In this document: piece by piece, positions 178 to 16,493 of the stretch
Position numbering within the stretch: the stretch's first letter is position 1
Layout: the number at the start of each line of letters is the position of its first letter
Origin: Escherichia phage mEp234
Reading direction: 5' to 3' (one strand)
Length of the DNA stretch: 40,804 nt
Sequence record: PV340539
Notes under the pieces: model-generated
Seen by the model: the letters and a program-made list of their open reading frames with translations, nothing else
Told to the model about the DNA's origin: nothing
The model's database searches: none
Program-made: the position numbers and the translations under genes

Positions 178-224
178 GTGTACCAGATGTGTACCAAACC
201 ATTATTTCTGAGCGTACCAAATAT
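178..224 (+). repeat. Cluster of three GTACCA(A/G) direct repeats just upstream of int; putative integrase arm-type binding sites (attL-side arm)
   Basis: 'tgtgtaccag', 'tgtgtaccaaacc', 'gcgtaccaaata' within 50 bp; same motif recurs at 40727-40749. Confidence 0.4.
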
Positions 225-229
225 TATTT

Positions 230-1408
230 ATGGCTATAAGCGACACAAAACTGCGTACTATTTATGGTAAACCATATTCGGGCCCACAAGAAGTGGCTGA
301 TGCCGATGGCCTCAGCGTACGAATTTCACCGAAGGGGGTCATCCAGTTCCAGTACCGCTATCGCTGGCATGGCAAGCCTAATCGACTTGGGCTTGGTCGA
401 TACCCATCCCTGTCTTTGAAGGATGCCAGACAGATCACTGCTGACTTGCGAAAGCTCTATTTCTCAGGAACGGATCCACGCACTTATTTTGAAGAGAAGG
501 TGGAGAACTCCATGACGGTCGCCCAGTGTCTCGACTACTGGTTCGACAATTACGTCTCTACAACTCTCAGAGAAAAGACCCAGGCACTTTACCGATCAAC
601 GGTTATGAAGCGCATGCATGACGCCTTCCCTAATCGACCGGCATCTTCTATCACGGTTAAGCAATGGGTTGACCTGCTTACCGAAGAAGAAAAAGATAAT
701 CCACGCCGAGCAAGGCAGGTGCTAAGTCAACTAAGATCAGCAATTAGTTGGTGCATGCGGCGTCAGTTGATAGATAGTTGCGCAATTATGAGCATCCAGC
801 CAAGGGACTTCGGCTCCCGCGCTGAGGTAGGGGATCGGGTACTGTCGTATCACGAACTGGCTAAGATTTGGCTTGCTATTGAAAGAAGCCGTGCGTCTAC
901 GTCAAATAAGCTCCTTCATCAGATGCTTATGCTGTGGGGGGCGAGGCTCTCAGAGCTTAGGCTGGCAACAAAGACAGAATTTGACCTGCTGGACAACGTA
1001 TGGACCGTACCGAAAGAGCATAGCAAGATGGGTAATGTTATCCGCCGTCCAATCTTCGAACAAATTAAGCCTTTTCTCGAAAAGGCCATGACAACGTACA
1101 ATGATGTTCTTTTCCCTGGAGAAGACATAAACAAACCGATCAGCATCGCTGCAGCCAACCGATTCGTAAACAGAATAAGGGGAGGGATGGATCTAGGTTA
1201 CTGGCGAACACATGATTTCAGAAGAACGCTTGTTACACGTCTGTCCGAGATGAATGTCGAGCCTCATGTTACTGAGCGAATGCTCGGTCATGAACTTGGC
1301 GGGATAATGTCCGTATACAATAAACACGACTGGATAGAGGCTCAGCGCAAAGCGTATGAGCTTCACGCTGATAAATTGTTCTGGCACATCAGGAGCATTT
1401 CTGATTAA
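230..1408 (+). CDS. int: Tyrosine site-specific integrase, P4-like with N-terminal arm-binding (DUF4102-type) domain
   Basis: 392 aa; N-terminus '...GLSVRISPKGVIQFQYRYRWHGKPNRLGLGRYPSLSLKDAR', C-terminal 'HDFRRT...RMLGHE...Y' catalytic signature. Confidence 0.93.
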   Translation: MAISDTKLRTIYGKPYSGPQEVADADGLSVRISPKGVIQFQYRYRWHGKPNRLGLGRYPSLSLKDARQITADLRKLYFSGTDPRTYFEEKVENSMTVAQCLDYWFDNYVSTTLREKTQALYRSTVMKRMHDAFPNRPASSITVKQWVDLLTEEEKDNPRRARQVLSQLRSAISWCMRRQLIDSCAIMSIQPRDFGSRAEVGDRVLSYHELAKIWLAIERSRASTSNKLLHQMLMLWGARLSELRLATKTEFDLLDNVWTVPKEHSKMGNVIRRPIFEQIKPFLEKAMTTYNDVLFPGEDINKPISIAAANRFVNRIRGGMDLGYWRTHDFRRTLVTRLSEMNVEPHVTERMLGHELGGIMSVYNKHDWIEAQRKAYELHADKLFWHIRSISD

Positions 1409-1580
1409 CGCCACCGTTAAGAATCCACCCTTCAACAGCTTCACGAAGGTATGATTTGGGGTGGGTTCTGACTGGCTTCGGAAATCCGTGCCGTTTGGTA
1501 TAGTTCCAGATTGTCTGACGTGATGAAACACCGAGCTTGTTCATCACTTCTTTCTCAGGAATCAGGCTGGTATCGGTCAT
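1389..1580 (-). CDS. AlpA/excisionase-family small DNA-binding protein (putative Xis or regulator)
   Basis: 63 aa, HTH-like '...LGVSSRQTIWNYTKRHGFPKPV...'; convergent with int, 20-nt 3' overlap. Confidence 0.75.
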   Translation of the reverse strand: MTDTSLIPEKEVMNKLGVSSRQTIWNYTKRHGFPKPVRTHPKSYLREAVEGWILNGGVNQKCS

Positions 1581-1659
1581 CTTAATTCTCCAGGCAAAAA
1601 TAAACCGCCATATAGCGGCTCTATCAGATATGTACAGGCCTCATCGAGTGTGAGGCGGG

Positions 1660-2004
1660 TTAGTCCTTGCGTAGCTCACTGATTCTTCTGTAAGTCTCTG
1701 GTGCTTTGTTCCCGTACGTCTTCATTTCAGACTTCAACAGAGCAACGAGGGGATCCCATTCGTTGAGGATGCCTTTGAATGCCGGAACGCGCTTTGCAAC
1801 CTTGTCGAATGAATCTCTGATTTCTGGAATCTGCTCGACAAGTGCAACGCATCGTCTGAAATCGGCTGCGTCATGAGGAGCGCCGAAGTGATGACCATAG
1901 ATATTCTTTTTCAGGCCACATGCGATTGAGGCAAGAGTTGCGCTACTGATGCCGACATCGCCAGTCGATAGCCATTTCAAAACCTTCATAGCCAAATCTG
2001 ACAT
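1660..2004 (-). CDS. Hypothetical phage protein (distal end of the leftward early operon)
   Basis: 114-aa ORF with GGAG RBS upstream of ATG; no family recognised. Confidence 0.55.
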   Translation of the reverse strand: MSDLAMKVLKWLSTGDVGISSATLASIACGLKKNIYGHHFGAPHDAADFRRCVALVEQIPEIRDSFDKVAKRVPAFKGILNEWDPLVALLKSEMKTYGNKAPETYRRISELRKD

Positions 2005-2026
2005 TTCTTGTCTCCATAAAACAAAA

Positions 2027-2050
2027 CTCGCCGTAGCGAGTTCAGATAAA
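2027..2050 (-). terminator. Putative intrinsic terminator (hairpin 'aactcgc-tacg-gcgagtt' + U-run on minus strand) between IS and 114-aa gene
   Basis: Stem-loop followed by TTTTGTTTT on minus strand. Confidence 0.3.
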
Positions 2051-2218
2051 AGAAATCCCCGCGAGTGCGAGGATTGTTATGTAATATTGGGTTTAATCAT
2101 CTATATGTTTTGTACAGAGAGGGCAAGTATCGTTTCCACCGTACTCGTGACCTGCTCCCCGTTGATTAGTACACCCCGATGTTAGTAATGTCTTCATAAG
2201 CCACATGAGGACATCCCC

Positions 2219-2482
2219 ATGAAGAAGCGTTTTTCCGACGAACAGATCATCAGTATTCTCCGCGAAGCCGAAGCTGGGGTACCCGCCCGTGAACTCTGCC
2301 GCAAGCATGCCATTTCCGATGCCACGTTTTACACCTGGCGTAAGAAGTATGGCGGTATGGAGGTGCCTGAAGTTAAGCGCCTGAAGTCGCTTGAGGAAGA
2401 GAACACCAGACTCAAGAAGCTGCTTGCCGAAGCCATGCTGGATAAAGAGGCGCTTCAGGTGGCTCTTGGGCGAAAGTACTGA
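2219..2482 (+). CDS. IS3-family transposase OrfA (HTH DNA-binding part)
   Basis: 87 aa '[46 protein letters not shown]...' typical IS3/IS407 OrfA with leucine zipper. Confidence 0.9.
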
Positions 2483-2505
2483 CGACAGACCAGAAGCGGG
2501 AAGCC

Positions 2506-3339
2506 GTGATGTTGATGTGTGATGCGACCGGTCTGTCGCAACGTCGTGCCTGCAGGCTTACAGGTTTATCCCTGTCGACCTGCCGCTATGAGGCTCACCG
2601 TCCGGCTGCTGATGCGCATTTATCAGGGCGCATCACTGAGCTGGCACTGGAGCGCAGGCGTTTTGGCTACCGTCGTATTTGGCAGTTGCTGCGCCGTGAA
2701 GGGCTTCATGTTAATCATAAGCGCGTGTACCGGCTTTATCACCTCAGTGGCCTGGGCGTAAAACGCAGAAGACGTCGTAAAGGGCTGGCAACAGAACGTC
2801 TGCCGCTGCTCCGTCCGGCGGCGCCCAATCTGACCTGGTCGATGGATTTCGTCATGGACGCACTTTCCACCGGTCGCAGGATCAAGTGTCTTACCTGCGT
2901 CGATGATTTCACAAAGGAATGCCTGACGGTCACTGTTGCCTTTGGGATTTCAGGCGTTCAGGTCACGCGTATTCTGGACAGCATTGCACTGTTTCGAGGC
3001 TATCCGGCGACGATAAGAACTGACCAGGGGCCGGAGTTCACTTGCCGTGCACTGGATCAATGGGCCTTTGAGCATGGTGTTGAGTTGCGCTTAATCCAGC
3101 CGGGCAAGCCAACGCAGAACGGATTTATTGAGAGCTTTAACGGACGATTTCGCGATGAATGTTTGAATGAGCACTGGTTCAGCGATATCGTTCATGCCAG
3201 GAAAATTATTAATGACTGGCGGCAGGATTATAACGAATGCCGCCCGCACTCCACGCTGAATTATCAGACACCGTCTGAATTTGCAGCGGGCTGGAGAAAG
3301 GGTCATTCTGAGAATGAAGATTCCGACGTTACTAACTGA
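2506..3339 (+). CDS. IS3-family transposase OrfB (DDE catalytic domain); probably expressed as OrfAB fusion by -1 frameshift in 2446-2482
   Basis: 277 aa with '...[54 protein letters not shown]...'; frame -1 relative to orfA, open from 2446. Confidence 0.9.
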
Positions 3340-3368
3340 GTGTTGTATCTAATCGTGGGGGCAGGTCA

Positions 3369-3513
3369 CAACGGCGCTGTAGTTTGTCCATTCTTTCTTT
3401 TTTGTCTGGCGATCGTAATACTGAACGCCAGCACGGATGTTGAATCCGATATTTTCCCCGGCCTGAAACTCTCTTGCGGGCTTGTTTAGTCTTACAGTAA
3501 TCGAATGTGCCAT
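3369..3513 (-). pseudogene. 5' fragment (~48 codons) of a gene translationally coupled to erf, truncated by the IS element; weakly SSB/OB-fold-like
   Basis: ATG overlaps erf stop (TAATG); 'MAHSITVRLNKPAREFQAGENIGFNIRAGVQYYDRQTKKKEWTNYSAVV' then runs into the IS inverted repeat; no continuation beyond the IS. Confidence 0.45.
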
Positions 3514-4118
3514 TAAGCAGCCGCTCCTTCTAATTCGTCTCGTCTGATGTTGTAAACGTCCTGCGCTTTGTGCTGCTCCGGTGTTCCTTCGAGCATCTTC
3601 CACGCTTTGGCGAACGCCTGTTTAAGCTCTTCCACGGTGTTTTTTTGCATTGCTGCGTCAGTGAATGCTTTTAGAACCTGTTCAGGTGTAGGTGATGGTT
3701 TTGATTGCTTTGCTGCTGCGTTCTGCTGATGTTTATGTTCGTCGGTATCTGCATCTTTCGCATCATCAATGCCGAACAAACCATTAAGGCAATACTTGCG
3801 CGCATAAGAGCTTGTAGCTCCAGTAACTTGTGCAGAATCCATTCCTTTCTTGCTTTCTTCCTCTCGTGCAAGAGCAGTTGCCGTATGACTGTTTTCGCCA
3901 TCGGTAATAGTTGCCGTGGCTTTCACGTAATACCGATCACCAATCAACACAACTTCATCGCTGATTGATAAAAACAGGCCATTCAGTAACGGCTTAACGC
4001 CTTCAAGAATGTCTTCGCAGCTTCTGTATTTATATTTACCGAATGAGTTGTACTGATTCTTTGGCGCGTTCAGATTCTCCTGAATAGCTGCCAGTCTTGC
4101 GTAAAATTCTTTGCTCAT
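3513..4118 (-). CDS. erf: Erf-family ssDNA annealing recombinase (P22 Erf-like)
   Basis: 'MSKEFYARLAAIQENLNAPKNQYNSFGKYKYRSCEDILEGVKPLL...' recalled as matching P22 Erf; likely start is the internal ATG at 4118 (track ORF 3513..4148). Confidence 0.85.
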   Translation of the reverse strand: MSKEFYARLAAIQENLNAPKNQYNSFGKYKYRSCEDILEGVKPLLNGLFLSISDEVVLIGDRYYVKATATITDGENSHTATALAREEESKKGMDSAQVTGATSSYARKYCLNGLFGIDDAKDADTDEHKHQQNAAAKQSKPSPTPEQVLKAFTDAAMQKNTVEELKQAFAKAWKMLEGTPEQHKAQDVYNIRRDELEGAAA

Positions 4119-4128
4119 ATGATTGTTC

Positions 4129-4299
4129 TCAGAATGGACACGGCCCAAGGAAATAACGCTGATTTAATACTTCAGTCTTTGCCGCATTTAAAAATACGCG
4201 AACACCTTCACGATCTCCCTTCTGGCGATACATTAACGCCTGCTGCGTGTACATGCGTCTCTGTAACTTGCTCTCCTTCACTGTGGTTGCAAGTGACAT
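4129..4299 (-). CDS. Small ORF (56 aa) between kil-like and erf; possible Arf-like accessory gene. A 56-aa ORF in another frame (4208..4378) overlaps it, so only one is likely real
   Basis: Strong RBS GAAGGAGATATTCATG; 'MSLATTVKESKLQRRMYTQQALMYRQKGDREGVRVFLNAAKTEVLNQRYFLGPCPF'; below the ORF-track size cutoff. Confidence 0.3.
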   Translation of the reverse strand: MSLATTVKESKLQRRMYTQQALMYRQKGDREGVRVFLNAAKTEVLNQRYFLGPCPF

Positions 4300-4374
4300 G
4301 AATATCTCCTTCGTTACCGATTAATTCTTTCATCTGACGAATGAATTCTTCGTCTGACCAGTTATCTGTAAAAC

Positions 4375-4527
4375 TCATTTCCTGCGATACAACGGAAGGT
4401 TGATAGCTGATTTCATCGCTTTATTTGCTTCAAACCACATTTTGGAATCACCAATAAATCTGGCTATTACTGCTTTGTTTTGTGCAGCACGAAGCATCTG
4501 ATGATTTATGGCTATTTCATTGCGCAT
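4375..4527 (-). CDS. Kil-like small protein (50 aa), putative host cell-division inhibitor
   Basis: 'MRNEIAINHQMLRAAQNKAVIARFIGDSKMWFEANKAMKSAINLPLYRRK'; '...IA(R/T)FIGD..KM...' resembles lambdoid Kil; sits between cIII and erf as in P22/lambda. Confidence 0.4.
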   Translation of the reverse strand: MRNEIAINHQMLRAAQNKAVIARFIGDSKMWFEANKAMKSAINLPLYRRK

Positions 4528-4643
4528 AATAAGACCTCAACTCTTTTCCATCCGTCACGTAATTTACGGGTGATTCGTTCAAGTAAAGATTCATTTAGTT
4601 GGAAGGCACCCATGCGAGCGCCTCCCGCGATTGCGTAAATCAT
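4512..4643 (-). CDS. cIII: cIII-like FtsH inhibitor (43 aa)
   Basis: 'MIYAIAGGARMGAFQLNESLLERITRKLRDGWKRVEVLLCAMK'; 'YAIAG' and 'ESLLERITRKLRDGWKR' match the lambda CIII core as recalled. Confidence 0.75.
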   Translation of the reverse strand: MIYAIAGGARMGAFQLNESLLERITRKLRDGWKRVEVLLCAMK

Positions 4644-4667
4644 GGGTGGTTCCTTATGTTGGTTTTA

Positions 4668-5636
4668 TTAGTAGGTTATTTTTGTTGCGAATACTTCGCC
4701 TTTTACGATGGCTGTTATGATATTTTTAGCAACATCTTCTGATGCACCAACCTTGATAAGGTCAGCAAGTATTTTGTTATTTACTTCTTTCCGGTGAGCT
4801 TTATCCTTTGCTCTACGCTCTTCTTCGTCCTTGATTCTTTTTTCTTCTGCTATTCTGGCTTGCTCTTTTGCTTCAGCCTCGCGCCGGATTCGTTCTGCCT
4901 CCTCCTGTGCTTTTCGGCGTTCTGCTTCAATTGCCACCTGCTTTTCTCTTTCAGCTCGTTCTGCTGCCTCTTTTGCTTCGCGCTGTGCTCGTTGCTCGGC
5001 TTCAATGCGTTCACGCTCTGCACGTTCCGCTGCGGCCTTAGCTTCTGCTTCTCGCCTTGCTGCTGCTTCAATTTCGGCTTTTGCCTTTGCTTCGGCTTCA
5101 GCTCTGGCTTTCTCTTCAGCTTCTCTTTTTAAGCGTTCTTCATGCTCTCGCTTTTCCTGCTCCGCTTTGAGTCTTGCCTCTTCTCTTTGGCGGTCAAATT
5201 CGCGATCCATCAAAATCGCTATTTCATGGTCAGACTCAATTTGCTTTGCGAGAGCTTCAGCTGCTGCCTTAGCTTCTTCTTCGGCTTTAATCCGTGCCTG
5301 CTCCTCCTCATAATCAGTAAGAGGCTGACGCGCCTTGGCTTTCAGCTCATCAAGTCGATCACGCACTGTCTTGCGGTTGGCATCAATTAGCTTTGGAATT
5401 TCCTTCAGTTCAGCAACAAGGTCTTTTCCAAGACCATCGAGATATGTTTTCGTCTGCGCAACTTTATACGCCAGAGAAGCGATCTCCTTTCTGCCCTTTG
5501 CCGTTGTGATATCAGGCACAAAGGACATAACTTCACGTTCAACCTTTTGGAGAATTTCTTCAATCTGGTCGGCAGACTGAAATACAGTCATTGCATTTGC
5601 TTTTTCAATAACAACTAAATCTGTTACTTCACTCAT
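4668..5636 (-). CDS. Early-operon protein with long E/A/K/R-rich coiled-coil central region; function unknown
   Basis: RBS GGAGGATATATG; 322 aa from MSEVTDLVV; central ~200 aa of '(A/E)EAKA...RREAEA' repeats; spurious low-complexity plus-strand ORFs overlap. Confidence 0.7.
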   Translation of the reverse strand: MSEVTDLVVIEKANAMTVFQSADQIEEILQKVEREVMSFVPDITTAKGRKEIASLAYKVAQTKTYLDGLGKDLVAELKEIPKLIDANRKTVRDRLDELKAKARQPLTDYEEEQARIKAEEEAKAAAEALAKQIESDHEIAILMDREFDRQREEARLKAEQEKREHEERLKREAEEKARAEAEAKAKAEIEAAARREAEAKAAAERAERERIEAEQRAQREAKEAAERAEREKQVAIEAERRKAQEEAERIRREAEAKEQARIAEEKRIKDEEERRAKDKAHRKEVNNKILADLIKVGASEDVAKNIITAIVKGEVFATKITY

Positions 5637-5794
5637 ATATCCTCCGTCAAAAAAATTGCCCTCACACTGGAGGGCAAAGAAGATTTCCAATAATCAGAAC
5701 AAGTCGGCTCCTGTTTAGTTACGAGCGACATTGCTCCGTGTATTCACTCGTTGGAATGAATACACAGTGCAGTGTTTATTCTGTTATTTATGCC

Positions 5795-5821
5795 AAAAAT
5801 AAAGGCCGCCATCAGGCAGCC
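5795..5821 (-). terminator. Putative intrinsic terminator at 3' end of the 83-aa gene (minus strand)
   Basis: Hairpin 'ggctgcc-tgat-ggcggcc' followed by UUUAUUUUU on minus strand. Confidence 0.35.
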
Positions 5822-6063
5822 TTGTTGTAAATGTTGCAGGTATCAAGTAAGTAATTAGATGGAGCGCCATAAATTATGAATTCATCGTTTGTCGGGTCCA
5901 TCTCCATCTCTTGGCCTATTGCCATTCTTGCGTCAGTGTCATCAGCGGCGAAGCATAAAACAGCCCACGCACCCATTGTTTTAAAAAGAACTGCAATTGG
6001 CTGTGGTTTTACTGAATTTGCGTTAGCGCGAAAATCACAAATCGCACTTTCATGAAATTCCAT
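5812..6063 (-). CDS. Hypothetical small protein (83 aa) downstream of N
   Basis: ORF in the position of lambdoid ral/sieB-type accessory genes; no family recognised. Confidence 0.45.
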   Translation of the reverse strand: MEFHESAICDFRANANSVKPQPIAVLFKTMGAWAVLCFAADDTDARMAIGQEMEMDPTNDEFIIYGAPSNYLLDTCNIYNKAA

Positions 6064-6121
6064 ATATCACCTCAAATAAGTGGTTTGCTGCCTAATTTTA
6101 TTTTCTGGCGACCAACACAAG

Positions 6122-6505
6122 TCACCTTGCTGTCAGTTGTTTTGATTTCCTGTAGCCTGCCGCGTAAAGAGCTACATTTGGAAGACATACACCAGTTTCT
6201 GGTTGCCTATGCCCAAACTCATTCGCGTACACAATGGCCGCTCTCTCCAGATTGCGTCTGTATTCTTTCTGTTGCCAGATCACGTCCTGTGCCATGAACT
6301 TAATTGGCTTAGCGTCTTCTATGCGCTCAGGCGTTTCGTGAGTACCTTTAGCCTGAATCTGCGCTCTGCTTAGAGTAGGGCGGTGTAATACTTCTGAACT
6401 TATTGCTTCTTCGCGGGCCAGTACGCCGTTAGCTAATGCCTTTGCCTTTAAACGCTCACGACGACGAGAACGTGAATTGCCTTTGAACTGAGTTCTGCGT
6501 GTCAT
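6122..6505 (-). CDS. N: N-type transcription antiterminator, P22 gene-24-like
   Basis: Arg-rich N-terminus 'MTRRTQFKGNSRSRRRERLKAKA'; C-terminus '...LPNVALYAAGYRKSKQLTAR' recalled as matching P22 gp24; first gene after pL/nutL. Confidence 0.8.
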   Translation of the reverse strand: MTRRTQFKGNSRSRRRERLKAKALANGVLAREEAISSEVLHRPTLSRAQIQAKGTHETPERIEDAKPIKFMAQDVIWQQKEYRRNLERAAIVYANEFGHRQPETGVCLPNVALYAAGYRKSKQLTAR

Positions 6506-6670
6506 ATAGACCTCCTGATGAACTTTGGTGGTGTGGTAGGTGGGAGACCCATTTCGACCTGTTTCGGCCTACTTCAATTCGGCAATAGTCCCGCAGGCCT
6601 CGCCGCTTTACGTGCGACATATTCCCGTCCATGAACCCTTCACCACACCCCAAAGTTCACTTTGGTTATT

Positions 6671-6685
6671 GCGCTTTGTCAGCGC
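6671..6685 (-). promoter_or_regulatory. nutL boxB hairpin, P22 type (GCGCUGACAAAGCGC on transcript)
   Basis: Forward 'gcgctttgtcagcgc'; perfect 5-bp stem with GACAA-containing loop in the N leader. Confidence 0.6.
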
Positions 6686-6753
6686 CGTAGATTCATCTCT
6701 GAATCGTTGTATATTCACCGCCCTGGTGAGTAGTGCGTCCTGCTGATGTGTTT

Positions 6754-6817
6754 AGTATCACCGCCAGTGGTATTTATGTCAACACCGCCAGAGATAATTT
6801 ATCACCGCAGATGGTTA
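6754..6817 (-). promoter_or_regulatory. pL promoter with operators oL1-oL2-oL3, lambda type
   Basis: oL1 'TATCACCGCCAGTGGTA' (6756-6772), oL2 'CAACACCGCCAGAGATA', oL3 'TATCACCGCAGATGGTTA'; -35 TTGACA / -10 GATACT on minus strand. Confidence 0.9.
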
Positions 6818-6965
6818 TCTGTATGTTTTTTATATAGATTTATTTTTTTGCAGGGGTGTGTGGCTTGGGAGGTGATCGAGAGATCTGAATTGCGATGTTT
6901 AGTGAGTTGTATCTATTAATTTTCAAATAAATACAATTGGTTATGTGTTTTGGGGCGAACGTGAG

Positions 6966-6993
6966 GCAAAGAAAACCCGGCGCGGTGGCCGGG
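6966..6993 (-). terminator. t-imm-like intrinsic terminator ending the cI-side leftward transcript
   Basis: Hairpin 'cccggccaccgcgccggg' + UUUUCUUUG on minus strand, directly after the acidic-protein stop; lambda-like flank. Confidence 0.7.
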
Positions 6994-7000
6994 TTGGAGA

Positions 7001-7426
7001 TTATTTTCTAGATGATGTTGGGGACCAAGGTAACGTTATAGTATCTAACACTGTGTTTTTGAACATATTTTCAAAAACTGTTTTTGTACATACATATACA
7101 TAATTTTCAAAAAACCAAGCATTTTCATTATAAAAATCCTCAGTTACTTCTTCATCGAGGTCACACTCAAATGTTAGTGTCAAGGTAGCCTCTGCCTTGA
7201 ACAATACATCCTCACCATCATCAAAATCTTTTTTATCGCGAGGGAAACCAGTTATCGATGGCTTAACTTCAATAAAGAGCCAATTTCCATCTTCATCTTT
7301 TTGAGGAACAACGTGATGCTCAGAAAATTTTAAGCTATATTTTCCGCCTTCAGAATTATCACTGTCGTCGATAAAAAGGGAAGAACCCTCGAGATCAAAT
7401 CCCTTAAAGCGAATTTTATCAAGCAT
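7001..7426 (-). CDS. Strongly acidic 141-aa protein of unknown function, third gene of the rex-slot cassette
   Basis: ATG overlaps hicB-like stop (TGATG); D/E- and aromatic-rich ('DDSDNSEGG', 'DKKDFDDGED', 'ECDLDEEVTEDFYNENAWFFENY'); track ORF 7001..7462 starts at a TTG, the ATG at 7426 is preferred. Confidence 0.6.
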   Translation of the reverse strand: MLDKIRFKGFDLEGSSLFIDDSDNSEGGKYSLKFSEHHVVPQKDEDGNWLFIEVKPSITGFPRDKKDFDDGEDVLFKAEATLTLTFECDLDEEVTEDFYNENAWFFENYVYVCTKTVFENMFKNTVLDTITLPWSPTSSRK

Positions 7427-7899
7427 CAATGTGGCACTCCGTTGTCTACTGAAACTTCCCAATAGGTCTCTTCTGTACGTCTACGGGATGAGAAGAAAGT
7501 AACTTCTCTAACATCCCTCGGTTTTTCAAAGTGGTAGTGAACCTCTTTTTTCCCATTAACTGACTCACTGACAGCCTGTTTTACATAATCGTTTAAAGTC
7601 ATATTCTTAGCTTTAGCAGCTAAATATGCTTTTTTATGCAGGGATTCACCTATCCGGATGTTAAACGAACCACTCATTGTCTTATCTGGAGATTTTCCTA
7701 TCTCTTCACAAGTGGAGAGGTAATCGTCCACGGCCTCCTCAAAGGCTGCACGGAGTTCTGCAACCGTTGCACCCTCATAAGTGACGAGATCATTTATACA
7801 TTCGAGTTTTCCATGCATCACCCCATCTTCAAATGAAATGCTGGAGCTACCATAGTAACCTTTGTATTTCATCAAGTTATTCATGATCATCAATCTCAT
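7426..7899 (-). CDS. HicB-like antitoxin-family protein with ~45-aa C-terminal extension (start ambiguous: 7899/7890/7884/7872)
   Basis: '...MKYKGYYGSSSISFEDGVMHGKLECINDLVTYEGATVAELRAAFEEAVDDYLSTCEEIGKSPDKTMSGSFNIRIGESLHKKAYLAAKAKNMTLNDYVKQAV' matches the HicB fold/RHH pattern; overlaps hicA-like 3' end. Confidence 0.7.
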   Translation of the reverse strand: MRLMIMNNLMKYKGYYGSSSISFEDGVMHGKLECINDLVTYEGATVAELRAAFEEAVDDYLSTCEEIGKSPDKTMSGSFNIRIGESLHKKAYLAAKAKNMTLNDYVKQAVSESVNGKKEVHYHFEKPRDVREVTFFSSRRRTEETYWEVSVDNGVPH

Positions 7900-8131
7900 C
7901 TAACAGCTGTTTAACTTCTTCCAAGACGTACCTTTTGAGGGTGTTTTCAGGATGAGGCTCATGAAAAATGACCAATCTATCAACACGTTGGTTGTAAAAT
8001 TTACGGCCAGAACCTCGTTTAGCATTCAAAAGCTTGAAGCCATACTGGTTCATGAGAGTAACGAACTCATCCCAAGTAAAATTTTTGGGTAAGCCGTCTA
8101 ACTTTGACTTTAGCTTTTCCTTTCTTCCCAC
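7877..8131 (-). CDS. HicA-like (YcfA-fold) toxin-family protein, GTG start
   Basis: 84 aa; '...GFKLLNAKRGSGRKFYNQRVDRLVIFHEPHPENTLKRYVLEEVKQLL' resembles the HicA motif but has GSGR where GS(N/H)H is expected; toxin-first order as in hicAB. Confidence 0.6.
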   Translation of the reverse strand: MGRKEKLKSKLDGLPKNFTWDEFVTLMNQYGFKLLNAKRGSGRKFYNQRVDRLVIFHEPHPENTLKRYVLEEVKQLLDEIDDHE

Positions 8132-8157
8132 GAAGGATACATCCTCTGTTAAAGGTA

Positions 8158-8180
8158 GTGCAACTGAAATCTAGTTGCAA
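8158..8180. promoter_or_regulatory. Imperfect palindrome GTGCAACT-n7-AGTTGCAA upstream of hicA-like start; candidate operator/promoter of the cassette
   Basis: Inverted repeat 7/8 match, ~30 bp upstream of the GTG start at 8131. Confidence 0.3.
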
Positions 8181-8291
8181 GCTATGCTATCTATAGACAA
8201 AATGTTTCATTGTTATATCAGAAGATACCCGATCTGTTTCACCTTCAACTACTATAATTTGTTATAAGCTATCAACCGGTGGAACTGCGAA

Positions 8292-8390
8292 TTAGCCGCT
8301 GGGTGTTGCGTATCCATCGATGATAAACCATGCCATAAACCCCATAGCTACGATGAACACCAAGATCGGAAACACTATACCAATTCTCAT
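8292..8390 (-). CDS. Small hydrophobic ORF (32 aa, single predicted TM helix) between cI and hicA-like
   Basis: RBS AGGGA-n7-ATG; 'MRIGIVFPILVFIVAMGFMAWFIIDGYATPSG'; below ORF-track cutoff. Confidence 0.3.
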   Translation of the reverse strand: MRIGIVFPILVFIVAMGFMAWFIIDGYATPSG

Positions 8391-8494
8391 GATTTTATCC
8401 CTGTCTACCCATGCTTCCTGGGCACCAGCGGCTCGTTACTCGGCATCACCCTTAATCCGCCGCCCCATGTGTTTGTTGTGATCCGTTGCTGGCC

Positions 8495-9211
<717 letters not shown>

Positions 9212-9218
9212 TTAAATC

Positions 9219-9284
9219 TATCACCGCAAGGGATAAATATCTAACACCGTGCGTGTTGACTATTTTACCTCTAGCGGTGATAAT
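9219..9284. promoter_or_regulatory. oR3-oR2-oR1 with divergent pRM and pR, lambda type
   Basis: oR3 'TATCACCGCAAGGGATA', oR2 'TAACACCGTGCGTGTTG', oR1 'TACCTCTAGCGGTGATA' (one base differs from my recollection of lambda oR1); pR -35 TTGACT / -10 GATAAT. Confidence 0.9.
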
Positions 9285-9299
9285 GGTTGCATGTACTAA

Positions 9300-9509
<210 letters not shown>

Positions 9510-9516
9510 GTAACAC

Positions 9517-9562
9517 CGCTCTTTTCACAATGGACATTCGTCCTACGTCGCTGACAAAGCGA
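9517..9562 (+). promoter_or_regulatory. nutR: boxA-like 'CGCTCTTTT' and boxB hairpin 'TCGCTGACAAAGCGA'
   Basis: boxA consensus-like element 22 nt upstream of a 5-bp stem / GACAA-loop hairpin, right after cro. Confidence 0.6.
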
Positions 9563-9647
9563 GTCCCAATATATCTGACCAACTAAGGCCATATGCGTTT
9601 CCACGCATACCTTTCAACTAACTATTCACTATTGGAAATCTTAAGAA

Positions 9648-9944
9648 ATGGAAAGAACAAGTTACAGCAAACTATCACAGCGTGACGTTGATCGCGCAGA
9701 AACAGATTTACTCATCAACCTGTCAACGCTTACCCAGCGCGGTCTGGCAAAGATGATTGGCTGTCATGAATCGAAGATAAGCAGAACGGACTGGAGATTT
9801 ATTGCTTCGGTCTTGTGTGCTTTTGGAATGGCATCAGACATCAGTCCGATTAGCAGGGCTTTTAAGTATGCGCTTGATGAAATCACAAAGAAAAAATCCC
9901 CGGCCGCCACCGAGGATTTTAAGCAAATTGATATGCAATTCTGA
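9648..9944 (+). CDS. cII: CII-family transcriptional activator
   Basis: 98 aa; HTH '...GLAKMIGCHESKISRTDW...' and C-terminus '...KKKSPAATEDFKQIDMQF' resemble lambda CII ('...KKRPAATERSEQIQMEF'). Confidence 0.7.
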   Translation: MERTSYSKLSQRDVDRAETDLLINLSTLTQRGLAKMIGCHESKISRTDWRFIASVLCAFGMASDISPISRAFKYALDEITKKKSPAATEDFKQIDMQF

Positions 9945-9976
9945 GGGAATTACTGGATCAATCCACAGGAGTAATT

Positions 9977-10141
9977 ATGACAAAACGTCGTAAGAAATAC
10001 CAGGAAAAAGAAGAGATTCGACACCCTGATTCACCTGAGGGATTAGTGGTAGCCGCAGCAAATAACAGGGCGTTCGCAGAGCGCCTTGTTGGTGTTTACA
10101 GACTAGCCAAAGCAGGAGTGAAGCATGGGCGTCGTTAAGTT
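9977..10141 (+). CDS. Small basic ORF (54 aa) between cII and the replication initiator
   Basis: RBS AGGAG-n7-ATG; 'MTKRRKKYQEKEEIRHPDSPEGLVVAAANNRAFAERLVGVYRLAKAGVKHGRR'; overlaps initiator start by 17 nt. Confidence 0.35.
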
Positions 10142-11015
10142 AGCTGATTACAGGCATAACCCTGTACAACATCAGGAGGCATCCAGTATGGGGTATGTCT
10201 CTATACACCGCCAGTTTATGGACAGCAGGCTCTATAAGGACTCTCAGGCAGTACATCTTTGGCTTCACTTAATCCTCAAGGCTAATCACGAATCTACTGT
10301 CGTCAATACGGATATCGGTCCGATAACTGTTGATCGCGGTCAGATGATAACTGGACGCCCGTCGCTGGTCAGAGAAACATTCATCCCCGACAACAAAGTT
10401 CGGAGCTTATTACGGACTTTTGAGTCGAAAGGGATGCTTAATATTTGCTCGATGGGGAAGAAATTTAGCCTGTTTACAATCGTTAAATATGACGATTTTC
10501 AGGCAAAAAATTGTCCAACGGTTGTCCAACGGTTGTCCAACGCAAACACCAGTAATGGCGCGGATCTCAGCGGAGATTGTCCAACGGTTGTCCAACGGTT
10601 GTCCATAAACAATAATATAAATAATATCTCTAATACTGACGTATTAGAGAGTGCCACAGCAGACAAAAAGTCTGACAAGAAAAAACCTTCCGTTAGCTGT
10701 CAGGATGTTGTCGATGCTTACCACGAAATCCTTCCTGAAGCGCCAAGAATCCGCGCACTGAATGACAAGCGTAAAAACCAGATCCGAACGTTCTGGCGCA
10801 AAGCCGGAGTGATAACCCGTCAGCTTGACGGGCATGGGTTCACGATGCAGGACTGGAGAAATTATTTGAGCTACGTAGGCGAAAATTGCCGATGGATGTT
10901 CGAAGAGCGCCCAAACCATCAACGCGGAACCGTCTGGCACAAAAAGGGATTTGATTTCCTGCTTAACGATAATACCTACCTGAAAGTTCGTGAGGGTGAA
11001 CACGATGACCGATAA
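10125..11015 (+). CDS. Replication initiator (O-like replisome organiser) with internal ori iterons
   Basis: 296 aa; good RBS; iterons and AT-rich tract inside the gene as in lambda O; followed by helicase gene. Confidence 0.75.
   Translation: MGVVKLADYRHNPVQHQEASSMGYVSIHRQFMDSRLYKDSQAVHLWLHLILKANHESTVVNTDIGPITVDRGQMITGRPSLVRETFIPDNKVRSLLRTFESKGMLNICSMGKKFSLFTIVKYDDFQAKNCPTVVQRLSNANTSNGADLSGDCPTVVQRLSINNNINNISNTDVLESATADKKSDKKKPSVSCQDVVDAYHEILPEAPRIRALNDKRKNQIRTFWRKAGVITRQLDGHGFTMQDWRNYLSYVGENCRWMFEERPNHQRGTVWHKKGFDFLLNDNTYLKVREGEHDDR
10511..10606 (+). repeat. Origin iterons: TTGTCCAACGG x3, 33-bp spacer, x2.7, followed by AT-rich tract (10607-10640)
   Basis: Perfect 11-bp tandem repeats read directly in sequence, inside the initiator gene. 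Confidence 0.85.
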
Positions 11016-12441
11016 TTTTTATGCGCCGCCCCATAGTATCGAGGCAGAGCAGGCGGTGATTGGTGGATTGCTTCTGGATGATGACAGCAGTGAGCGCGTC
11101 CAGAAAGTTCTGGCGATACTGAAGCCTGATTCATTTTACAGCCGACCACACAAAATCCTTTTCGAAGAAATAACCAGAATGCACCGGGAGCAAAAGCCAG
11201 TAGATGGGCTGACGCTTTTCGATGAACTGGAGCGCAAATCGTTAACGGCGTCTGTTGGCGGTTTTGCTTATATCGCTGAGATCGCAAAGAACACGCCAAG
11301 CGCAGCAAACATCGTTGCCTATGCAATGCAGGTTCGTGAAACCGCAATGGAACGCTACGCCATCAACCGCATGACTGAAGCGACGGAATTGCTCTATTCC
11401 CGCAACGGAATGACTGCAACGCAGAAGTACGAAGCTATTCAGTCGATTTTCACGCAACTGACAGACCATGCAAAAACCGGATCGCGTCGCGGCCTTCGCT
11501 CATTTGGTGAGGTCATGGAAGACTGGGTTAGCGACCTTGAGAAGCGATTTGACCCGTCAGGCGAACAACGAGGAATGAGCACAGGGATCCCATCGTTGGA
11601 CAGGATGCTGTCACCGAAAGGTCTGGTAAAAGGCTCTCTGTTTGTCATTGGCGCTCGCCCTAAGATGGGGAAAACGACGCTATACAGCCAGATGGCAATC
11701 AACTGCGCAGTGCATGAGAAAAAGCCCGCTCTGATGTTCAGCCTTGAAATGCCAGGTGACCAGATACTGGAAAAACTGGTGGGACAGAAGTCAGGTGTTA
11801 ACCCGAATATTTTTTACCTTCCGGCGACAAATGACGCTGATGACGGCTATCAGGGTGATTACGATGGTGACTTCAACAGGGCGATCGAGACAGCCAATCG
11901 CTTGAGTGAAATCGACCTGCTTTACATCGACGACACGCCGGGATTATCTCTGGCTCAAATCGTCAGCGAAAGCCGTCGAATCAAACGAGAAAAAGGATGC
12001 GTTGGCATGATTCTGGTCGATTACCTGACGCTAATGACCGCTGAAAAGGCCGATCGCAACGACCTTGCATACGGCATGATCACCAAAGGACTGAAGAACC
12101 TTGCCAAAGAGCTTGATTGCGTTGTTGTGCTTCTGACACAGCTTAACCGCGCATTGGAAAGCCGAACCAATAAACGCCCATTACCATGTGACTCGCGCGA
12201 TACAGGGCAGATTGAACAGGATTGCGATTATTGGGTGGGGATCCATCGGGAAGGTGCTTTTGATGACAGTGTTCCACCTGGTGAAACCGAACTAATCCTT
12301 CGTCTCAACCGTCATGGCAATACCGGCACGGTGTATTGCATTCAGGCAAATGGCGCTATTTATGACACAGACCAACAGTCTGCTGAAATGCGCCGCCGTG
12401 AACGCGAGGAACCGCAATCCAAGAAGAAAGGAGGATTCTGA
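11005..12441 (+). CDS. Replicative DNA helicase, DnaB family (P22 gp12-like)
   Basis: Walker A 'GARPKMGKT', N-terminal DnaB-like 'SIEAEQAVIGGLLLD'; ATG at 11005 overlaps initiator stop. Confidence 0.9.
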   Translation: MTDNFYAPPHSIEAEQAVIGGLLLDDDSSERVQKVLAILKPDSFYSRPHKILFEEITRMHREQKPVDGLTLFDELERKSLTASVGGFAYIAEIAKNTPSAANIVAYAMQVRETAMERYAINRMTEATELLYSRNGMTATQKYEAIQSIFTQLTDHAKTGSRRGLRSFGEVMEDWVSDLEKRFDPSGEQRGMSTGIPSLDRMLSPKGLVKGSLFVIGARPKMGKTTLYSQMAINCAVHEKKPALMFSLEMPGDQILEKLVGQKSGVNPNIFYLPATNDADDGYQGDYDGDFNRAIETANRLSEIDLLYIDDTPGLSLAQIVSESRRIKREKGCVGMILVDYLTLMTAEKADRNDLAYGMITKGLKNLAKELDCVVVLLTQLNRALESRTNKRPLPCDSRDTGQIEQDCDYWVGIHREGAFDDSVPPGETELILRLNRHGNTGTVYCIQANGAIYDTDQQSAEMRRREREEPQSKKKGGF

Positions 12442-12521
12442 TGACCATCTACATCACTGAGCTAATAACAGGCCTGCTGGTAATCGCAGGCCTTTTTATT
12501 TGGGGGAGAGGGAAGTCATGA
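12441..12521 (+). CDS. Small hydrophobic ORF (26 aa) translationally coupled between helicase and ninB
   Basis: RBS AGGAGG; TGATG overlap with helicase stop, ATGA overlap with ninB start; '[26 protein letters not shown]'. Confidence 0.35.
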   Translation: MTIYITELITGLLVIAGLFIWGRGKS

Positions 12522-12958
12522 AAAAACTAACCTTTGAAATTCGATCTCCGGCACATCAGCAAAACGCTATTCACGCGGTACAGCAAATTCTTCCAGACCC
12601 AACCAAACCAATCGTAGTAACCATTCAGGAACGCAACCGCAGCTTAGACCAAAACAGGAAGCTATGGGCCTGCTTAGGTGACGTCTCTCGTCAGGTTGAA
12701 TGGCATGGTCGCTGGCTGGATGCAGAAAGCTGGAAGTGTGTTTTTACAGCAGCATTAAAGCAGCAGGACGTTGTTCCTAACCTTGCCGGGAATGGCTTTG
12801 TGGTAATAGGCCAGTCAACCAGCAGGATGCGTGTAAGCGAATTTGCGGAGTTATTAGAGCTTATACAGGCATTCGGTACAGAGCGTGGCGTTAAGTGGTC
12901 AGACGAAGCGCGACTGGCTCTGGAGTGGAAAGCGAGATGGGGAGACAAGGCTGCATGA
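12518..12958 (+). CDS. ninB: NinB recombination protein, lambda type
   Basis: '[56 protein letters not shown]...' near-identical to lambda NinB as recalled. Confidence 0.93.
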
Positions 12959-13131
12959 GACGACAGCGACGAAGTATCACCGACATCATCTGTGAAAACT
13001 GCAAATACCTTCCAACGAAACGCTCCAGAAATAAACGCAAGCCAATCCCAAAAGAATCTGACGTAAAAACCTTCAACTACACGGCTCACCTGTGGGATAT
13101 CCGGTGGCTAAGACATCGTGCGAGGAAATGA
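12955..13131 (+). CDS. ninD: NinD, lambda type
   Basis: 58 aa '[58 protein letters not shown]'; ATGA-coupled to ninB. Confidence 0.85.
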
Positions 13132-13496
13132 CAATGGATTATTCACAGTTAAGTGATTTTGAAATTAACAAGCGAGTGGCAATTTGCTGTGGATTTGCTC
13201 CCGAAGATTGCGAAATCGCAAAGTTGGGAACATCAATCGTTGGTGTTGAGTGGGATGACGAAACTGGTTATGCAATAAAAACGGTTGATTACTGTAAAAG
13301 ACCATCAGACGCATGGCCGATTATCACTGAAAACAACATCAGCATAATTTTAGACAATCCCTCAATGCCGTGCGCTACAGACAACGCAAGGGACTTGTTT
13401 GATGATGCCGGACCGAATGTTGGTGTCGCATATGACAATCCACTCCGTGCCGCCATGATTGTCTTTCTCATGATTCAGGACGCCAATAATGCTTAG
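13128..13496 (+). CDS. Nin-region protein of unknown function (NinX/DUF-type)
   Basis: 122 aa from '[23 protein letters not shown]...'; ATGA-coupled to ninD. Confidence 0.6.
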
Positions 13497-13665
13497 CCCA
13501 TCCCAATCCCTTCAATACCAGAAAGAAAGCGTCGAGCGGGCATTAACGTGCGCTAACTGCGGTCAGAAGTTGCATGTGCTGGAAGTTCACGTGTGTGAGC
13601 ACTGCTGCGCAGAACTGATGAGCGATCCGAATAGCTCAATGTACGAGGAAGAAGACGATGGCTAA
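13489..13665 (+). CDS. ninF: NinF, lambda type
   Basis: 58 aa '[58 protein letters not shown]'; below ORF-track cutoff. Confidence 0.8.
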
Positions 13666-14269
13666 ACCAGCGCGAAGACGATGTAAAAACGATGAATGTC
13701 GGGAATGGTTTCACCCTGCATTCGCCAATCAGTGGTGGTGCTCTCCAGAGTGTGGAACCAAGATAGCACTCGAACGACGAAGTAAAGAACGCGAAAAAGC
13801 GGAAAAAGCAGCAGAGAAGAAACGACGACGAGAGGAGCAGAAACAGAAAGATAAACTTAAGATTCGAAAACTCGCCTTAAAGCCCCGCAGTTACTGGATT
13901 AAACAAGCCCAACAAGCCGTAAACGCCTTCATCAGAGAAAGAGACCGCGACTTACCATGTATCTCGTGCGGAACGCTCACGTCTGCTCAGTGGGATGCCG
14001 GACATTACCGGACAACTGCTGCGGCACCTCAACTCCGATTTGATGAACGCAATATTCACAAGCAATGCGTGGTGTGCAACCAGCACAAAAGCGGAAATCT
14101 CGTTCCGTATCGCGTCGAACTGATTAATCGCATCGGGCAGGAAGCAGTAGACGAAATCGAATCAAACCATAACCGCCATCGCTGGACTGTCGAAGAGTGC
14201 AGGGCCATCAAGGCGGAGTATCAGCAGAAACTCAAAGACCTGCGAAATAGCAGAAGTGAGGCCGCATGA
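13658..14269 (+). CDS. ninG: NinG (Rap) recombination endonuclease, lambda type
   Basis: 203 aa '[41 protein letters not shown]...'. Confidence 0.92.
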
Positions 14270-14472
14270 CGTTCTCAGTAAAAACCATTCCAGACATGCT
14301 CGTTGAAGCATACGGAAACCAGACAGAAGTAGCACGCAGACTGAAATGTAGTCGCGGTACGGTCAGAAAATACGTTGATGATAAAGACGGGAAAATGCAC
14401 GCCATCGTCAACGACGTTCTCATGGTTCATCGCGGATGGAGTGAAAGAGATGCGCTATTACGAAAAAATTGA
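14266..14472 (+). CDS. ninH: NinH, lambda type
   Basis: 68 aa '[39 protein letters not shown]...'. Confidence 0.85.
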
Positions 14473-15115
14473 TGGCAGCAAATACCGAAATATTTGGGTA
14501 GTTGGCGATCTGCACGGATGCTACACGAACCTGATGAAAAAACTGGAGACGATAGGATTCGACACCAAAAAAGACCTGCTTATCTCGGTTGGCGATTTGG
14601 TCGATCGCGGTACAGAGAACGTCGAATGCCTGGAATTAATCACATTCCCCTGGTTCAGAGCTGTACGTGGAAACCATGAGCAAATGATGATTGATGGCTT
14701 ATCAGAGCGCGGAAACGTCAATCACTGGATGCTTAATGGCGGTGGCTGGTTCTTTAATCTCGATTACGACAAAGAAATTCTGGCTAAAGCTCTTGCCCAT
14801 AAAGCAGATGAACTTCCGTTAATCATCGAACTGGTGAGCAAAGATAAAAAATATGTCATCTGCCACGCCGATTATCCTTGTGACGAATACGAGTTTGGAA
14901 AGCCAGTTGATCATCAGCAGGTAATCTGGAACCGCGAACGAATCAGCAACTCACAAAACGGGATCGTGAAAGAAATCAAAGGCGCGGACACGTTCATCTT
15001 TGGTCATACGCCAGCAGTGAAACCACTCAAGTTTGCCAACCAAATGTATATCGATACCGGCGCAGTGTTCTGCGGAAACCTAACATTGATTCAGGTACAG
15101 GGAGAAGGCGCATGA
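14450..15115 (+). CDS. ninI: Ser/Thr protein phosphatase (lambda NinI / PPase)
   Basis: 221 aa from '[24 protein letters not shown]...GDLVDRG...GNHE' metallophosphatase motifs. Confidence 0.93.
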
Positions 15116-15735
15116 GACTCGAAAGCGTAGCTAAATTTCATTCGCCAAAAAGCCCGATGATGAGCGACTCACCACGGGCCACGGCTTCTGACTCTCTTTC
15201 CGGTACTGATGTGATGGCTGCTATGGGGATGGCGCAATCACAAGCCGGATTCGGTATGGCTGCATTCTTCGGTAAGCACGAACTCAGCCAGAACGACAAA
15301 CAAAAGGCTATCAACTATCTGATGCAATTTGCACACAAGGTATCGGGGAAATACCGTGGTGTGGCAAAGCTTGAAGGAAATACTAAGGCAAAGGTACTGC
15401 AAGTGCTCGCAACATTCGCTTATGCGGATTATTGCCGTAGTGCCGCGACGCCGGGGGCAAGATGCAGAGATTGCCATGGTACAGGCCGCGCGGTTGATAT
15501 AGCAAAAACAGAGCAGTGGGGGAGAGTTGTTGAGAAAGAGTGCGGAAGATGCAAAGGTGTCGGCTATTCAAGGATGCCAGCAAGCGCCGCATATCGCGCT
15601 GTAACGATGCTAATCCCAAACCTTACTCAACCCACCTGGTCACGCACTGTTAAGCCGCTGTATGACGCTCTGGTGGTGCAATGCCACAAGGAAGAGTCAA
15701 TCGCAGACAATATCTTGAATGCGGTCACACGTTAG
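15112..15735 (+). CDS. Q: Q late-gene antiterminator, lambda type
   Basis: 207 aa '[29 protein letters not shown]...[12 protein letters not shown]...CGRCKGVGY' as in lambda Q. Confidence 0.93.
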
Positions 15736-15777
15736 CAGCATGATTGCCACGGATGGCAACATATTAACGGCATGATA

Positions 15778-15806
15778 TTGACTTTTTGAATAAAGTTGGG
15801 TAAATT
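15778..15806 (+). promoter_or_regulatory. pR' late promoter (-35 TTGACT, -10 TAAATT) with overlapping qut region
   Basis: 'ttgactttttgaataaagttgggtaaatttgacatcaacgatgg' closely resembles lambda pR'. Confidence 0.8.
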
Positions 15807-15843
15807 TGACATCAACGATGGATAAATTCACTCGTTAAATAAA

Positions 15844-15874
15844 GCCCTGAGTTAATATCTCGGGGTTTTTTGCG
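15844..15874 (+). terminator. tR' intrinsic terminator very close to pR' (short 6S-like transcript)
   Basis: Hairpin 'gccctgag-ttaatat-ctcgggg' (one G.U) + TTTTTTG, ~40-60 nt after the predicted start. Confidence 0.6.
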
Positions 15875-16169
15875 TTTTAAGCACGGCCTTTCTGAAAGCA
15901 CATCAAACCAAATACCAGACAGACAAAAATAATCAACTTATCCGCTGTGGCTACGGTGCGGTGTGCTTTGCATAAAAGAAAACCAGCGCAATGGCTGGCT
16001 TCGTGAAAGCGGGTGGCATGAGGTTGCCCTAACAACCTCCTGCCGTTTTGCCCGTGCATATCGGTCACGAACAAATCTGATTACTAAACACAGTAGCCTG
16101 GATTTGTTCTATCAGTAATCGACCTTATTCCTAATTAAATAGAGCAAATCCCCTTATTGGGGGTAAGAC

Positions 16170-16493
16170 ATGAAGATGCCAGAAAAAAATGACCTGTTAG
16201 CCGCCATTCTCGCGGCAAAGGAACAAGGCATCGGGGCAATCCTTGCGTTTGCAATGGCGTACCTTCGCGGCAGATATAATGGCGGTGCGTTTACAAAAAC
16301 AGTAATCGACGCAACGATGTGCGCCATTATCGCCTGGTTCATTCGTGACCTTCTCGGCTTCGCCGGACTAAGTAGCAATCTCGCTTATATAACGAGCGTG
16401 TTTATCGGCTACATCGGTACTGACTCGATTGGTTCGCTTATCAAACGCTTCGCTGCTAAAAAAGCCGGAGTAGAAGATGGTGGGAATCAATAA
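16170..16493 (+). CDS. S: Holin S (class I, dual-start MKM), lambda type
   Basis: 107 aa '[62 protein letters not shown]...'. Confidence 0.95.

Follow-up and report, generated by a model that had tools for sequence, protein, structure and literature searches.

What is encoded in the short interval between the repressor gene cI and the toxin gene hicA of Escherichia phage mEp234, and does it belong to the toxin cassette at its side? The question is considered here for sequence record PV340539, whose whole stretch of 40,804 nucleotides is referred to as the window; its positions 3-19705 are 100% identical to the mEp234 records JQ182732 and NC_019715, with the match crossing the ends of the linear records, and phages HK106 and mEp506 are close relatives of mEp234. 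In an earlier note, made from the letters of the DNA, a hydrophobic minus-strand open reading frame (ORF) of 32 amino acids was pointed out in this interval and was suspected to be a membrane-depolarizing effector or a type I-like toxin of the hicA cassette. The literature search on the mEp phages gave nothing relevant.

The ORF is present at exactly 8292..8390 (minus strand), between cI (8495..9208, minus strand) and hicA (7877..8131, minus strand). It starts with ATG, comprises 32 codons, ends with TAA, and encodes the peptide MRIGIVFPILVFIVAMGFMAWFIIDGYATPSG; the plausible ribosome-binding site claimed for it is recognized as a Shine-Dalgarno-like (SD) AGGGA (8398..8402, minus strand) with a 7-nt spacer to the ATG. 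The peptide has a GRAVY value of 1.54 and a mean Kyte-Doolittle hydropathy of 2.58 over residues 3-23, which agrees with the single helix proposed in the note. The hydrophobic segment is flanked by R2 on the N-terminal side and by D25 and the C-terminus after the helix, and these charges agree with a predicted N-in/C-out topology. Taken alone, the length of 32 codons is unremarkable, since 86 ORFs of at least 20 amino acids overlap positions 6000-11000 and other frames are often open; the significance of the ORF comes instead from the match to a family model, from the start, stop, and length fixed in 55 copies, and from purifying selection.

With respect to family identity, the peptide is matched by the NCBIfam model NF033821 ("YoaK family small membrane protein") with 54.9 bits and E 4.9e-15 over residues 1-31 of 32, the curated cut-off of this model being 32 bits. 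PF28021:YoaK is among the precomputed matches for the identical protein, PGAP annotates the exact peptide in E. coli PE15 and AR_0118 as WP_024191667.1 under the same name as the NCBIfam model, and at NCBI the identical peptide stands under the YoaK family name on 269 contigs. The window peptide gave no match in the Pfam, PHROGs, and PADLOC libraries scanned. All elements of the YoaK pattern (MR-GI-FP...F..A..F..WF...GYA.PG, about 32 residues, one transmembrane (TM) helix) are present in it. When aligned with the chromosomal YoaK proteins of K-12, Enterobacter, Citrobacter, and Klebsiella it shares 15 of 15 invariant positions (M1, G4, I5, F7, P8, F12, I13, A15, F18, W21, F22, G26, Y27, A28, and P30), and 14 invariant columns are common to it and 18 other prophage variants. 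The protein is thus a member of a known, already annotated family, and its identity is ordinary. The description of the ORF as unannotated holds for the phage records of mEp234, HK106, and mEp506 and fails for RefSeq bacterial genomes, where it is carried as WP_024191667.1. As a separate observation, in the record of Klebsiella phage ST974-OXA48phi18.2 (MK448237; L004 3980-4099) the YoaK-like ORF is called from an upstream GTG as a 39-aa product and mislabeled as "CI transcriptional regulator," the real 131-aa repressor being named "putative repressor Cro"; this mis-annotation spreads as a cluster representative.

Relatives of the gene were sought by tblastn in phages and plasmids, by pattern scans of IMG/VR and GTDB genomes, and by exact look-ups. 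In the IMG/VR scan 86 contigs were found to encode relatives; 53 of these were internal prophage copies, and 27 other contigs carried the chromosomal Klebsiella gene at contig ends. One of the internal copies, L053, was left out as chromosomal and dgcP-type with a 63-aa read-through, leaving 52 phage-type loci, which together with the window, the Klebsiella phage, and a K. variicola plasmid form a prophage-type set of 55. These copies represent 29 different DNA sequences and 26 different proteins, and all of them are exactly 32 codons long. Across the set the pooled pN is 0.101 and the pooled pS 0.614 (Nei-Gojobori), resulting in a pN/pS of 0.165, while pS reaches 0.96 in pairs with the window copy; the entropy at codon positions 1, 2, and 3 is 0.32, 0.21, and 1.14, respectively. 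The sequence before the ATG falls into at least 8 unrelated classes, and a purine-rich SD (among the variants AAGGG, AAAGGGA, AAGGAGG, GTGAGGA, and AGAGGA) is placed at equal distance in every class. The conservation of reading frame and ribosome-binding site in related prophages, which the note had named as a check, is therefore seen in 55 of 55 copies with respect to the 32 codons, and the SD is kept.

The openness of the frame was not used as evidence, because the same 99 nt can frequently be read in other frames too: of 29 sequences, 27 are open in the +2 frame and 23 in the antisense frame. Antisense ORFs over the yoaK-like gene range from none to 155 aa, and the variable third positions of the sense frame are the first positions of the in-register antisense frame. 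Conservation along a helix face gave a weak signal (moment 0.18, permutation p 0.02). The fixed start and stop, the entropy by codon position, and the pN/pS value show that the ORF is a real gene whose amino-acid sequence is under purifying selection; selection acts on the amino-acid sequence and not merely on the translation of the ORF.

The distribution of the family was estimated by scanning GTDB with a single genome for each species, and it was found only in Enterobacteriaceae; one match, in a 456-aa protein of a Spirochaetota MAG, was spurious. Two clades are distinguished. Clade 1 comprises the copies in the dgcP-yoaK-(yoaJ)-yeaQ locus, which occurs in Escherichia, Enterobacter, Citrobacter, Lelliottia, and Klebsiella. 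Clade 2, characterized in most members by A6, V11, A17, and T29, is 73-80% identical to the window peptide and is encoded on the chromosomes of Kosakonia, Scandinavium, Pluralibacter, Phytobacter, and others, where at least 3 non-prophage contexts were seen. The prophage copies are closest to clade 2, which is their likely source, and the window allele is unusual within it by M16, G17, and D25. The chromosomal clade 2 copies (L090-L126) lie outside the dgcP locus, often after a conserved 77-aa ORF or a 586-aa membrane protein.

K-12 YoaK (b4676) and the window peptide are both 32 aa long with a single predicted TM helix and are 59% identical; they differ in location, the K-12 gene standing in the chromosomal dgcP-yoaK-yoaJ locus beside yeaQ and the window copy behind a prophage repressor. 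The dgcP-yoaK-(yoaJ)-yeaQ context, which is implied by the "equivalog" label of NF033821 and whose dgcP part is seen in K-12, Enterobacter, Citrobacter, and Lelliottia, is not found at the window copy, which follows cI. Because its context is that of cI and a phage and not that of dgcP, the window gene, although it belongs to the YoaK family, is classed as a paralogue or xenologue of chromosomal yoaK and not as its orthologue. The K-12 protein is predicted to be N-in/C-out, was experimentally assigned a "dual" topology (Table S1, PMC10470546), and was described as a weak, tag-dependent RseP substrate after plasmid expression in three tagged forms (PMC10470546); elsewhere it is listed as an uncharacterized small protein that is detectably expressed (bioRxiv 10.1101/511675). 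Within the family, production as a membrane-associated protein has been demonstrated for K-12 YoaK only. In the literature searched nothing was found on a function or a partner for any YoaK protein.

The next part of the question is how the gene is expressed. The minus-strand order of the region is PRM, cI, the yoaK-like ORF, hicA, hicB, a 141-aa ORF, a terminator-like hairpin, PL, and N. The lambda-like PRM (9215..9243, minus strand) was transferred from the HK106 annotation; cI, which encodes a repressor of lambda immunity type and S24 family, is the first gene of the lysogenic operon; the intrinsic-terminator-like hairpin with its T run (6974..6995, minus strand) lies just upstream of PL (6782..6754, minus strand), whose position agrees with the HK106 annotation. 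The yoaK-like gene follows cI on the same strand after a gap of 104 nt in which no terminator-like site was found, and the first terminator-like hairpin comes only after the 141-aa ORF (6995..6974); the placement in a lysogen-expressed stretch, here that between cI and PL, is supported. An Rfam scan of 6900-9300 at E up to 1 gave no match, and shuffled sequences folded as well as the RNA of the cI-ORF region (z -0.45). The region between cI and N has been characterized as a mosaic hotspot that is expressed in lysogens and shares the promoter of the repressor (PMC8585504); in the window the yoaK-like gene and its cargo occupy the lambda rexAB slot. We infer that in lysogens a transcript from PRM covers the gene together with cI, and the hairpin at 6974..6995 is predicted to close the transcription unit of cI, yoaK, and the three genes behind it.

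This association with a repressor is a common property of the prophage copies. A repressor ORF is located directly upstream and on the same strand in 39 of the 52 viral loci and is absent from this position in the other 13. In 23 loci it is an HTH repressor of about 130 aa ending in ..YMGRRIKGD.E, with a gap to yoaK of 17 nt (45 nt in the E. coli module); in 14 loci it is an S24/LexA-type repressor of 229-254 aa with a gap of 12 nt where native; and in 2 loci other cI-like repressors of two types are found with gaps of about 160-170 nt. Altogether the yoaK-like gene starts 12-17 nt past the repressor stop in more than 25 loci and 45 nt past it in AR_0118, and a repressor precedes the exact window allele in 10 of 10 non-redundant NCBI contexts. 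In the loci where the adjacent repressor is absent (L006 3244-3482, plus strand; L020 3648-3982, plus strand) two overlapping, unannotated short ORFs with TM-like segments were observed directly upstream of yoaK.

The gap of the window itself preserves the history of this association. It includes the fossil 3' end (..PQTYRKHG*) of an S24/LexA-type repressor gene at 8405..8431 (minus strand), recognized by the motif CCGCAGACGTACAGGAAGCATGGGTAG with 5 mismatches at -41, and this fossil (8431..8405) includes the native SD junction of the S24-type repressor to yoaK; in L018, L049, and L058-L062 the same end is intact as an in-frame repressor end with its stop 12 nt before yoaK. Upstream of it, at 8436..8468 (minus strand), the last 10 codons and stop (MGRRIKGDAE*) of the HTH repressor of about 130 aa are found as ATGGGGCGGCGGATTAAGGGTGATGCCGAGTAA, with one synonymous difference (8468..8436) from the 3' end of the intact AR_0118 repressor in the same module; this end motif lies at -78 in the window and, in its native form, at -50 in more than 25 loci. 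Fossil tails in the gap between cI and the ORF therefore indicate serial replacement, each event leaving the tail of the previous gene: the immunity gene before yoaK was replaced at least 2 times, from the S24 type to the HTH type and then to lambda cI. The same fossils occur downstream of yoaK in L017, L027, L049, L057, and L059-L062, that of the Klebsiella type at +357, which would be expected if "repressor plus yoaK" had been swapped in as a unit. Phage HK97 shares only 8444-8520 with the window, and no YoaK-like ORF was found in it.

On the downstream side the picture is one of exchange. At least 15 unrelated cargo modules follow the yoaK-like gene in the 52 viral loci, at a distance to the next gene that ranges from 55 to about 600 nt. 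They include ParA-like ATPases; an ImmA-like protein followed by a 169-aa ORF read as putative PIN/DUF4411-like; an NYN-like protein; two ORFs of 300 and 336 aa read as putative S49-like peptidases (no PADLOC match for the one that was scanned); BRO-N proteins; and two further toxin-antitoxin sets with a third ORF of about 23% identity to the chaperone of the window (see below), for which a SecB-like fold may be suggested from this similarity. In L038 and L050 the first ORF downstream of yoaK encodes BstA (PADLOC PDLC02356, E 1.5e-123). BstA is a prophage abortive-infection protein known from positions behind repressors, and in published BstA loci a YoaK-like gene between repressor and bstA may have been overlooked. 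In Klebsiella-type loci (L004 + L020 4205-4324, plus strand) an unannotated hydrophobic ORF of 39 aa (MSDLVIPILITLLIIGLVGIVLRLDKIFFKRRSGRDDFE) was also seen about 100 nt downstream of yoaK.

The cargo of the window is the cassette to which the earlier note had assigned the ORF. Its first gene is hicA, encoding a toxin of 84 aa (PF07927 with 32.1 bits; PHROG 8887 "toxin"; PGAP), and it is followed by the antitoxin gene hicB (7426..7899, minus strand; PF05534 with 66.9 bits; PHROG 9151), whose product has 148-157 aa depending on the start and is covered by PF05534 at residues 60-109 only, with a C-terminal extension beyond. The third gene (7001..7426, minus strand) encodes a 141-aa protein of PHROG 19522 ("unknown") with no match in NCBIfam, Pfam, or, by phmmer, the PDB. 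Its AF2 model from a 10-sequence alignment (pLDDT 78.9, pTM 0.72) gave as the best Foldseek match Rv1957 (5mtw; E 1.4e-5, TM 0.67-0.73), which is the SecB-like chaperone of the HigBA1 toxin-antitoxin-chaperone system of M. tuberculosis, and as the next matches the SecB proteins of E. coli and H. influenzae. According to this model the 141-aa protein has a predicted SecB-like fold, and hicA, hicB, and this ORF read as a complete tripartite toxin-antitoxin-chaperone (TAC) cassette. A "chaperone addiction" architecture has been described for TAC systems, HicAB ones included (PMC5105189, PMC6377645), and the C-terminal extension of HicB is consistent with it and may serve as such an addiction segment. 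The ORF of 153 aa that follows the yoaK-like gene on the K. variicola plasmid was compared with the window chaperone as a possible homologue and gave no match. A perfect 7-nt inverted repeat, TGCAACT-N7-AGTTGCA, was also noticed at window positions 8159-8179, about 30-50 nt before the GTG start of hicA, overlapping a weak promoter-like TTGCAA-17 nt-TACCTT on the minus strand; it could be a candidate HicB operator with an internal promoter, by analogy with the rexB promoter of lambda.

Since the TAC is complete as it stands and the cargo varies while the link to the repressor persists, the yoaK-like gene is placed outside the cassette, contrary to the membership proposed for it: HicAB-TAC follows it in L010 and L011 only, 2 of the 52 phage-type viral loci. 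The exact window allele has been seen only together with HicAB-TAC, in Rac-like prophages behind a 130-aa repressor (10 of 10 non-redundant contexts), and the loci carrying it are 99-100% identical in DNA; this co-occurrence is consistent with a recent spread of one near-identical DNA module, an allele-specific link being conceivable as well. Rac-like prophages of E. coli likewise carry the immunity-region module of the window, placed there between repressor and kilR. Overall, the yoaK-like gene is linked to repressors and independent of cargo. No description of this linkage at the head of the cI-N slot was found in the literature searched, and it can be considered a modest lead for an orphan family.

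As for function, the explanation that we favor, and regard as rather probable, is that the gene encodes a translated, non-toxic single-pass inner-membrane protein of the YoaK family which is co-expressed with cI, is independent of the cassette, and binds a host partner. The product would be a 32-residue protein with R2 on the N-terminal side, a helix over about residues 3-24, and the conserved G-Y-A-x-P-G tail, and its gene a prophage-borne paralogue of chromosomal yoaK that behaves as a partner of the prophage repressor gene on the promoter-distal side. In mEp234 lysogens it would be transcribed with cI from PRM and translated from its own SD, heading the mosaic cI-N cargo slot and working apart from the TAC cassette there. 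The phage copy is most likely non-toxic, judging from the native detection and plasmid expression of K-12 YoaK. The mechanism is a conjecture drawn from other bacterial small membrane proteins: the peptide may bind by non-toxic helix-helix contact to a host inner-membrane protein, probably the same one as for chromosomal YoaK, and this binding would change the envelope physiology or the phage susceptibility of the lysogen.

A more specific alternative is that the peptide is a dedicated superinfection-exclusion protein, residing in the inner membrane of the lysogen and blocking DNA entry or another membrane step of the incoming phage. Its position beside the repressor, where it leads a slot with exclusion and abortive-infection genes (lambda rexAB, BstA, TAC), speaks in its favor, as does its wide occurrence in prophages, where 53 internal IMG/VR copies were counted and the Klebsiella allele is present on at least 1000 contigs. 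However, it has no similarity to known exclusion proteins and belongs to no PADLOC or PHROG family, and its close homologues are stable non-prophage chromosomal genes in many Enterobacteriaceae, which favors a housekeeping membrane role. As a dedicated function, exclusion is therefore judged unlikely; given the neighborhood, it is plausible as a special case of the host-partner explanation. A somewhat broader proposal, on which we would venture only a speculative opinion a little above this level, is that the repressor-linked YoaK clade is a conserved component of the Enterobacteriaceae prophage immunity module, for example a membrane-level exclusion or lysogen-protection factor that moves with the repressor.

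It can also be supposed that the peptide has no function, its translation preventing Rho-dependent polarity or coupling the cargo to cI, or that the DNA serves as a recombination joint. The position of the ORF does coincide exactly with a mosaic junction that has fossil gene ends on its flanks, and the cargo behind it is freely exchanged; but a pN/pS of this size is purifying selection with synonymous sites near saturation, 15 residues stay unchanged also in chromosomal homologues from unrelated surroundings, and translational coupling does not fit a spacing to the next gene that varies so much. Because of the pN/pS value and this variable distance, a translated spacer or recombination joint is considered highly improbable.

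The toxin or depolarizing effector of the earlier note, functionally part of the hicA cassette, is the most improbable reading, since a potent toxin beside a continuously expressed repressor would itself be made continuously in lysogens: the peptide is small and hydrophobic, a toxin gene is adjacent, and the exact allele accompanies HicAB in all contexts sampled, but most family copies are in loci without HicAB, the cassette already has its three parts, the start shortly after the repressor stop implies constitutive lysogen expression, the host homologue is natively expressed, PADLOC and Rfam give no family, and simple scans, which an unconventional sRNA could escape, found no promoter-like site opposite the ORF.

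These results have several consequences. With regard to annotation, the records of mEp234, HK106, and mEp506 as well as PHROGs miss a real and conserved gene that is common in Enterobacteriaceae prophages. YoaK is an orphan among the small membrane proteins of E. coli, and the prophage clade offers a genetic handle on it: always placed for co-expression with the repressor and before an exchangeable slot of anti-phage cargo, it would allow lysogens with and without the ORF to be used as a simple phenotype system. The view of the neighboring cassette is corrected too, as a three-part TAC of HicA, HicB, and the predicted SecB-like protein needs no fourth membrane component. If the immunity-module proposal were true, it would provide the first phenotype and an experimental handle for the orphan YoaK family, its chromosomal copies included.

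Compared with known systems, the gene occupies the same position downstream of the repressor, with a presumably shared promoter, as lambda rexA and rexB and as BstA of phage BTP1. These have no sequence relation to YoaK and are themselves exchangeable cargo, whereas the YoaK-like gene is a conserved element between repressor and cargo and precedes BstA itself in L038 and L050.

The type I toxins Hok, Ibs, ShoB, and TisB are likewise small, hydrophobic, single-helix peptides of the inner membrane. They are controlled by antisense or small RNAs, have structured leaders, and are silent in growing cells. Unlike them, the yoaK-like ORF shows no promoter-like site on the opposite strand, no Rfam match, and no significant RNA structure, and it is placed for constitutive co-expression with the repressor.

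A further likeness is to the regulatory small membrane proteins of the class of MgrB, AcrZ, CydX, and KdpF. Each of these proteins has an identified partner, in which they differ from the YoaK proteins; YoaK is alike in size, in its single TM helix, and in the invariant residues of this helix, and the native expression of these proteins is non-toxic, as is that of K-12 YoaK.
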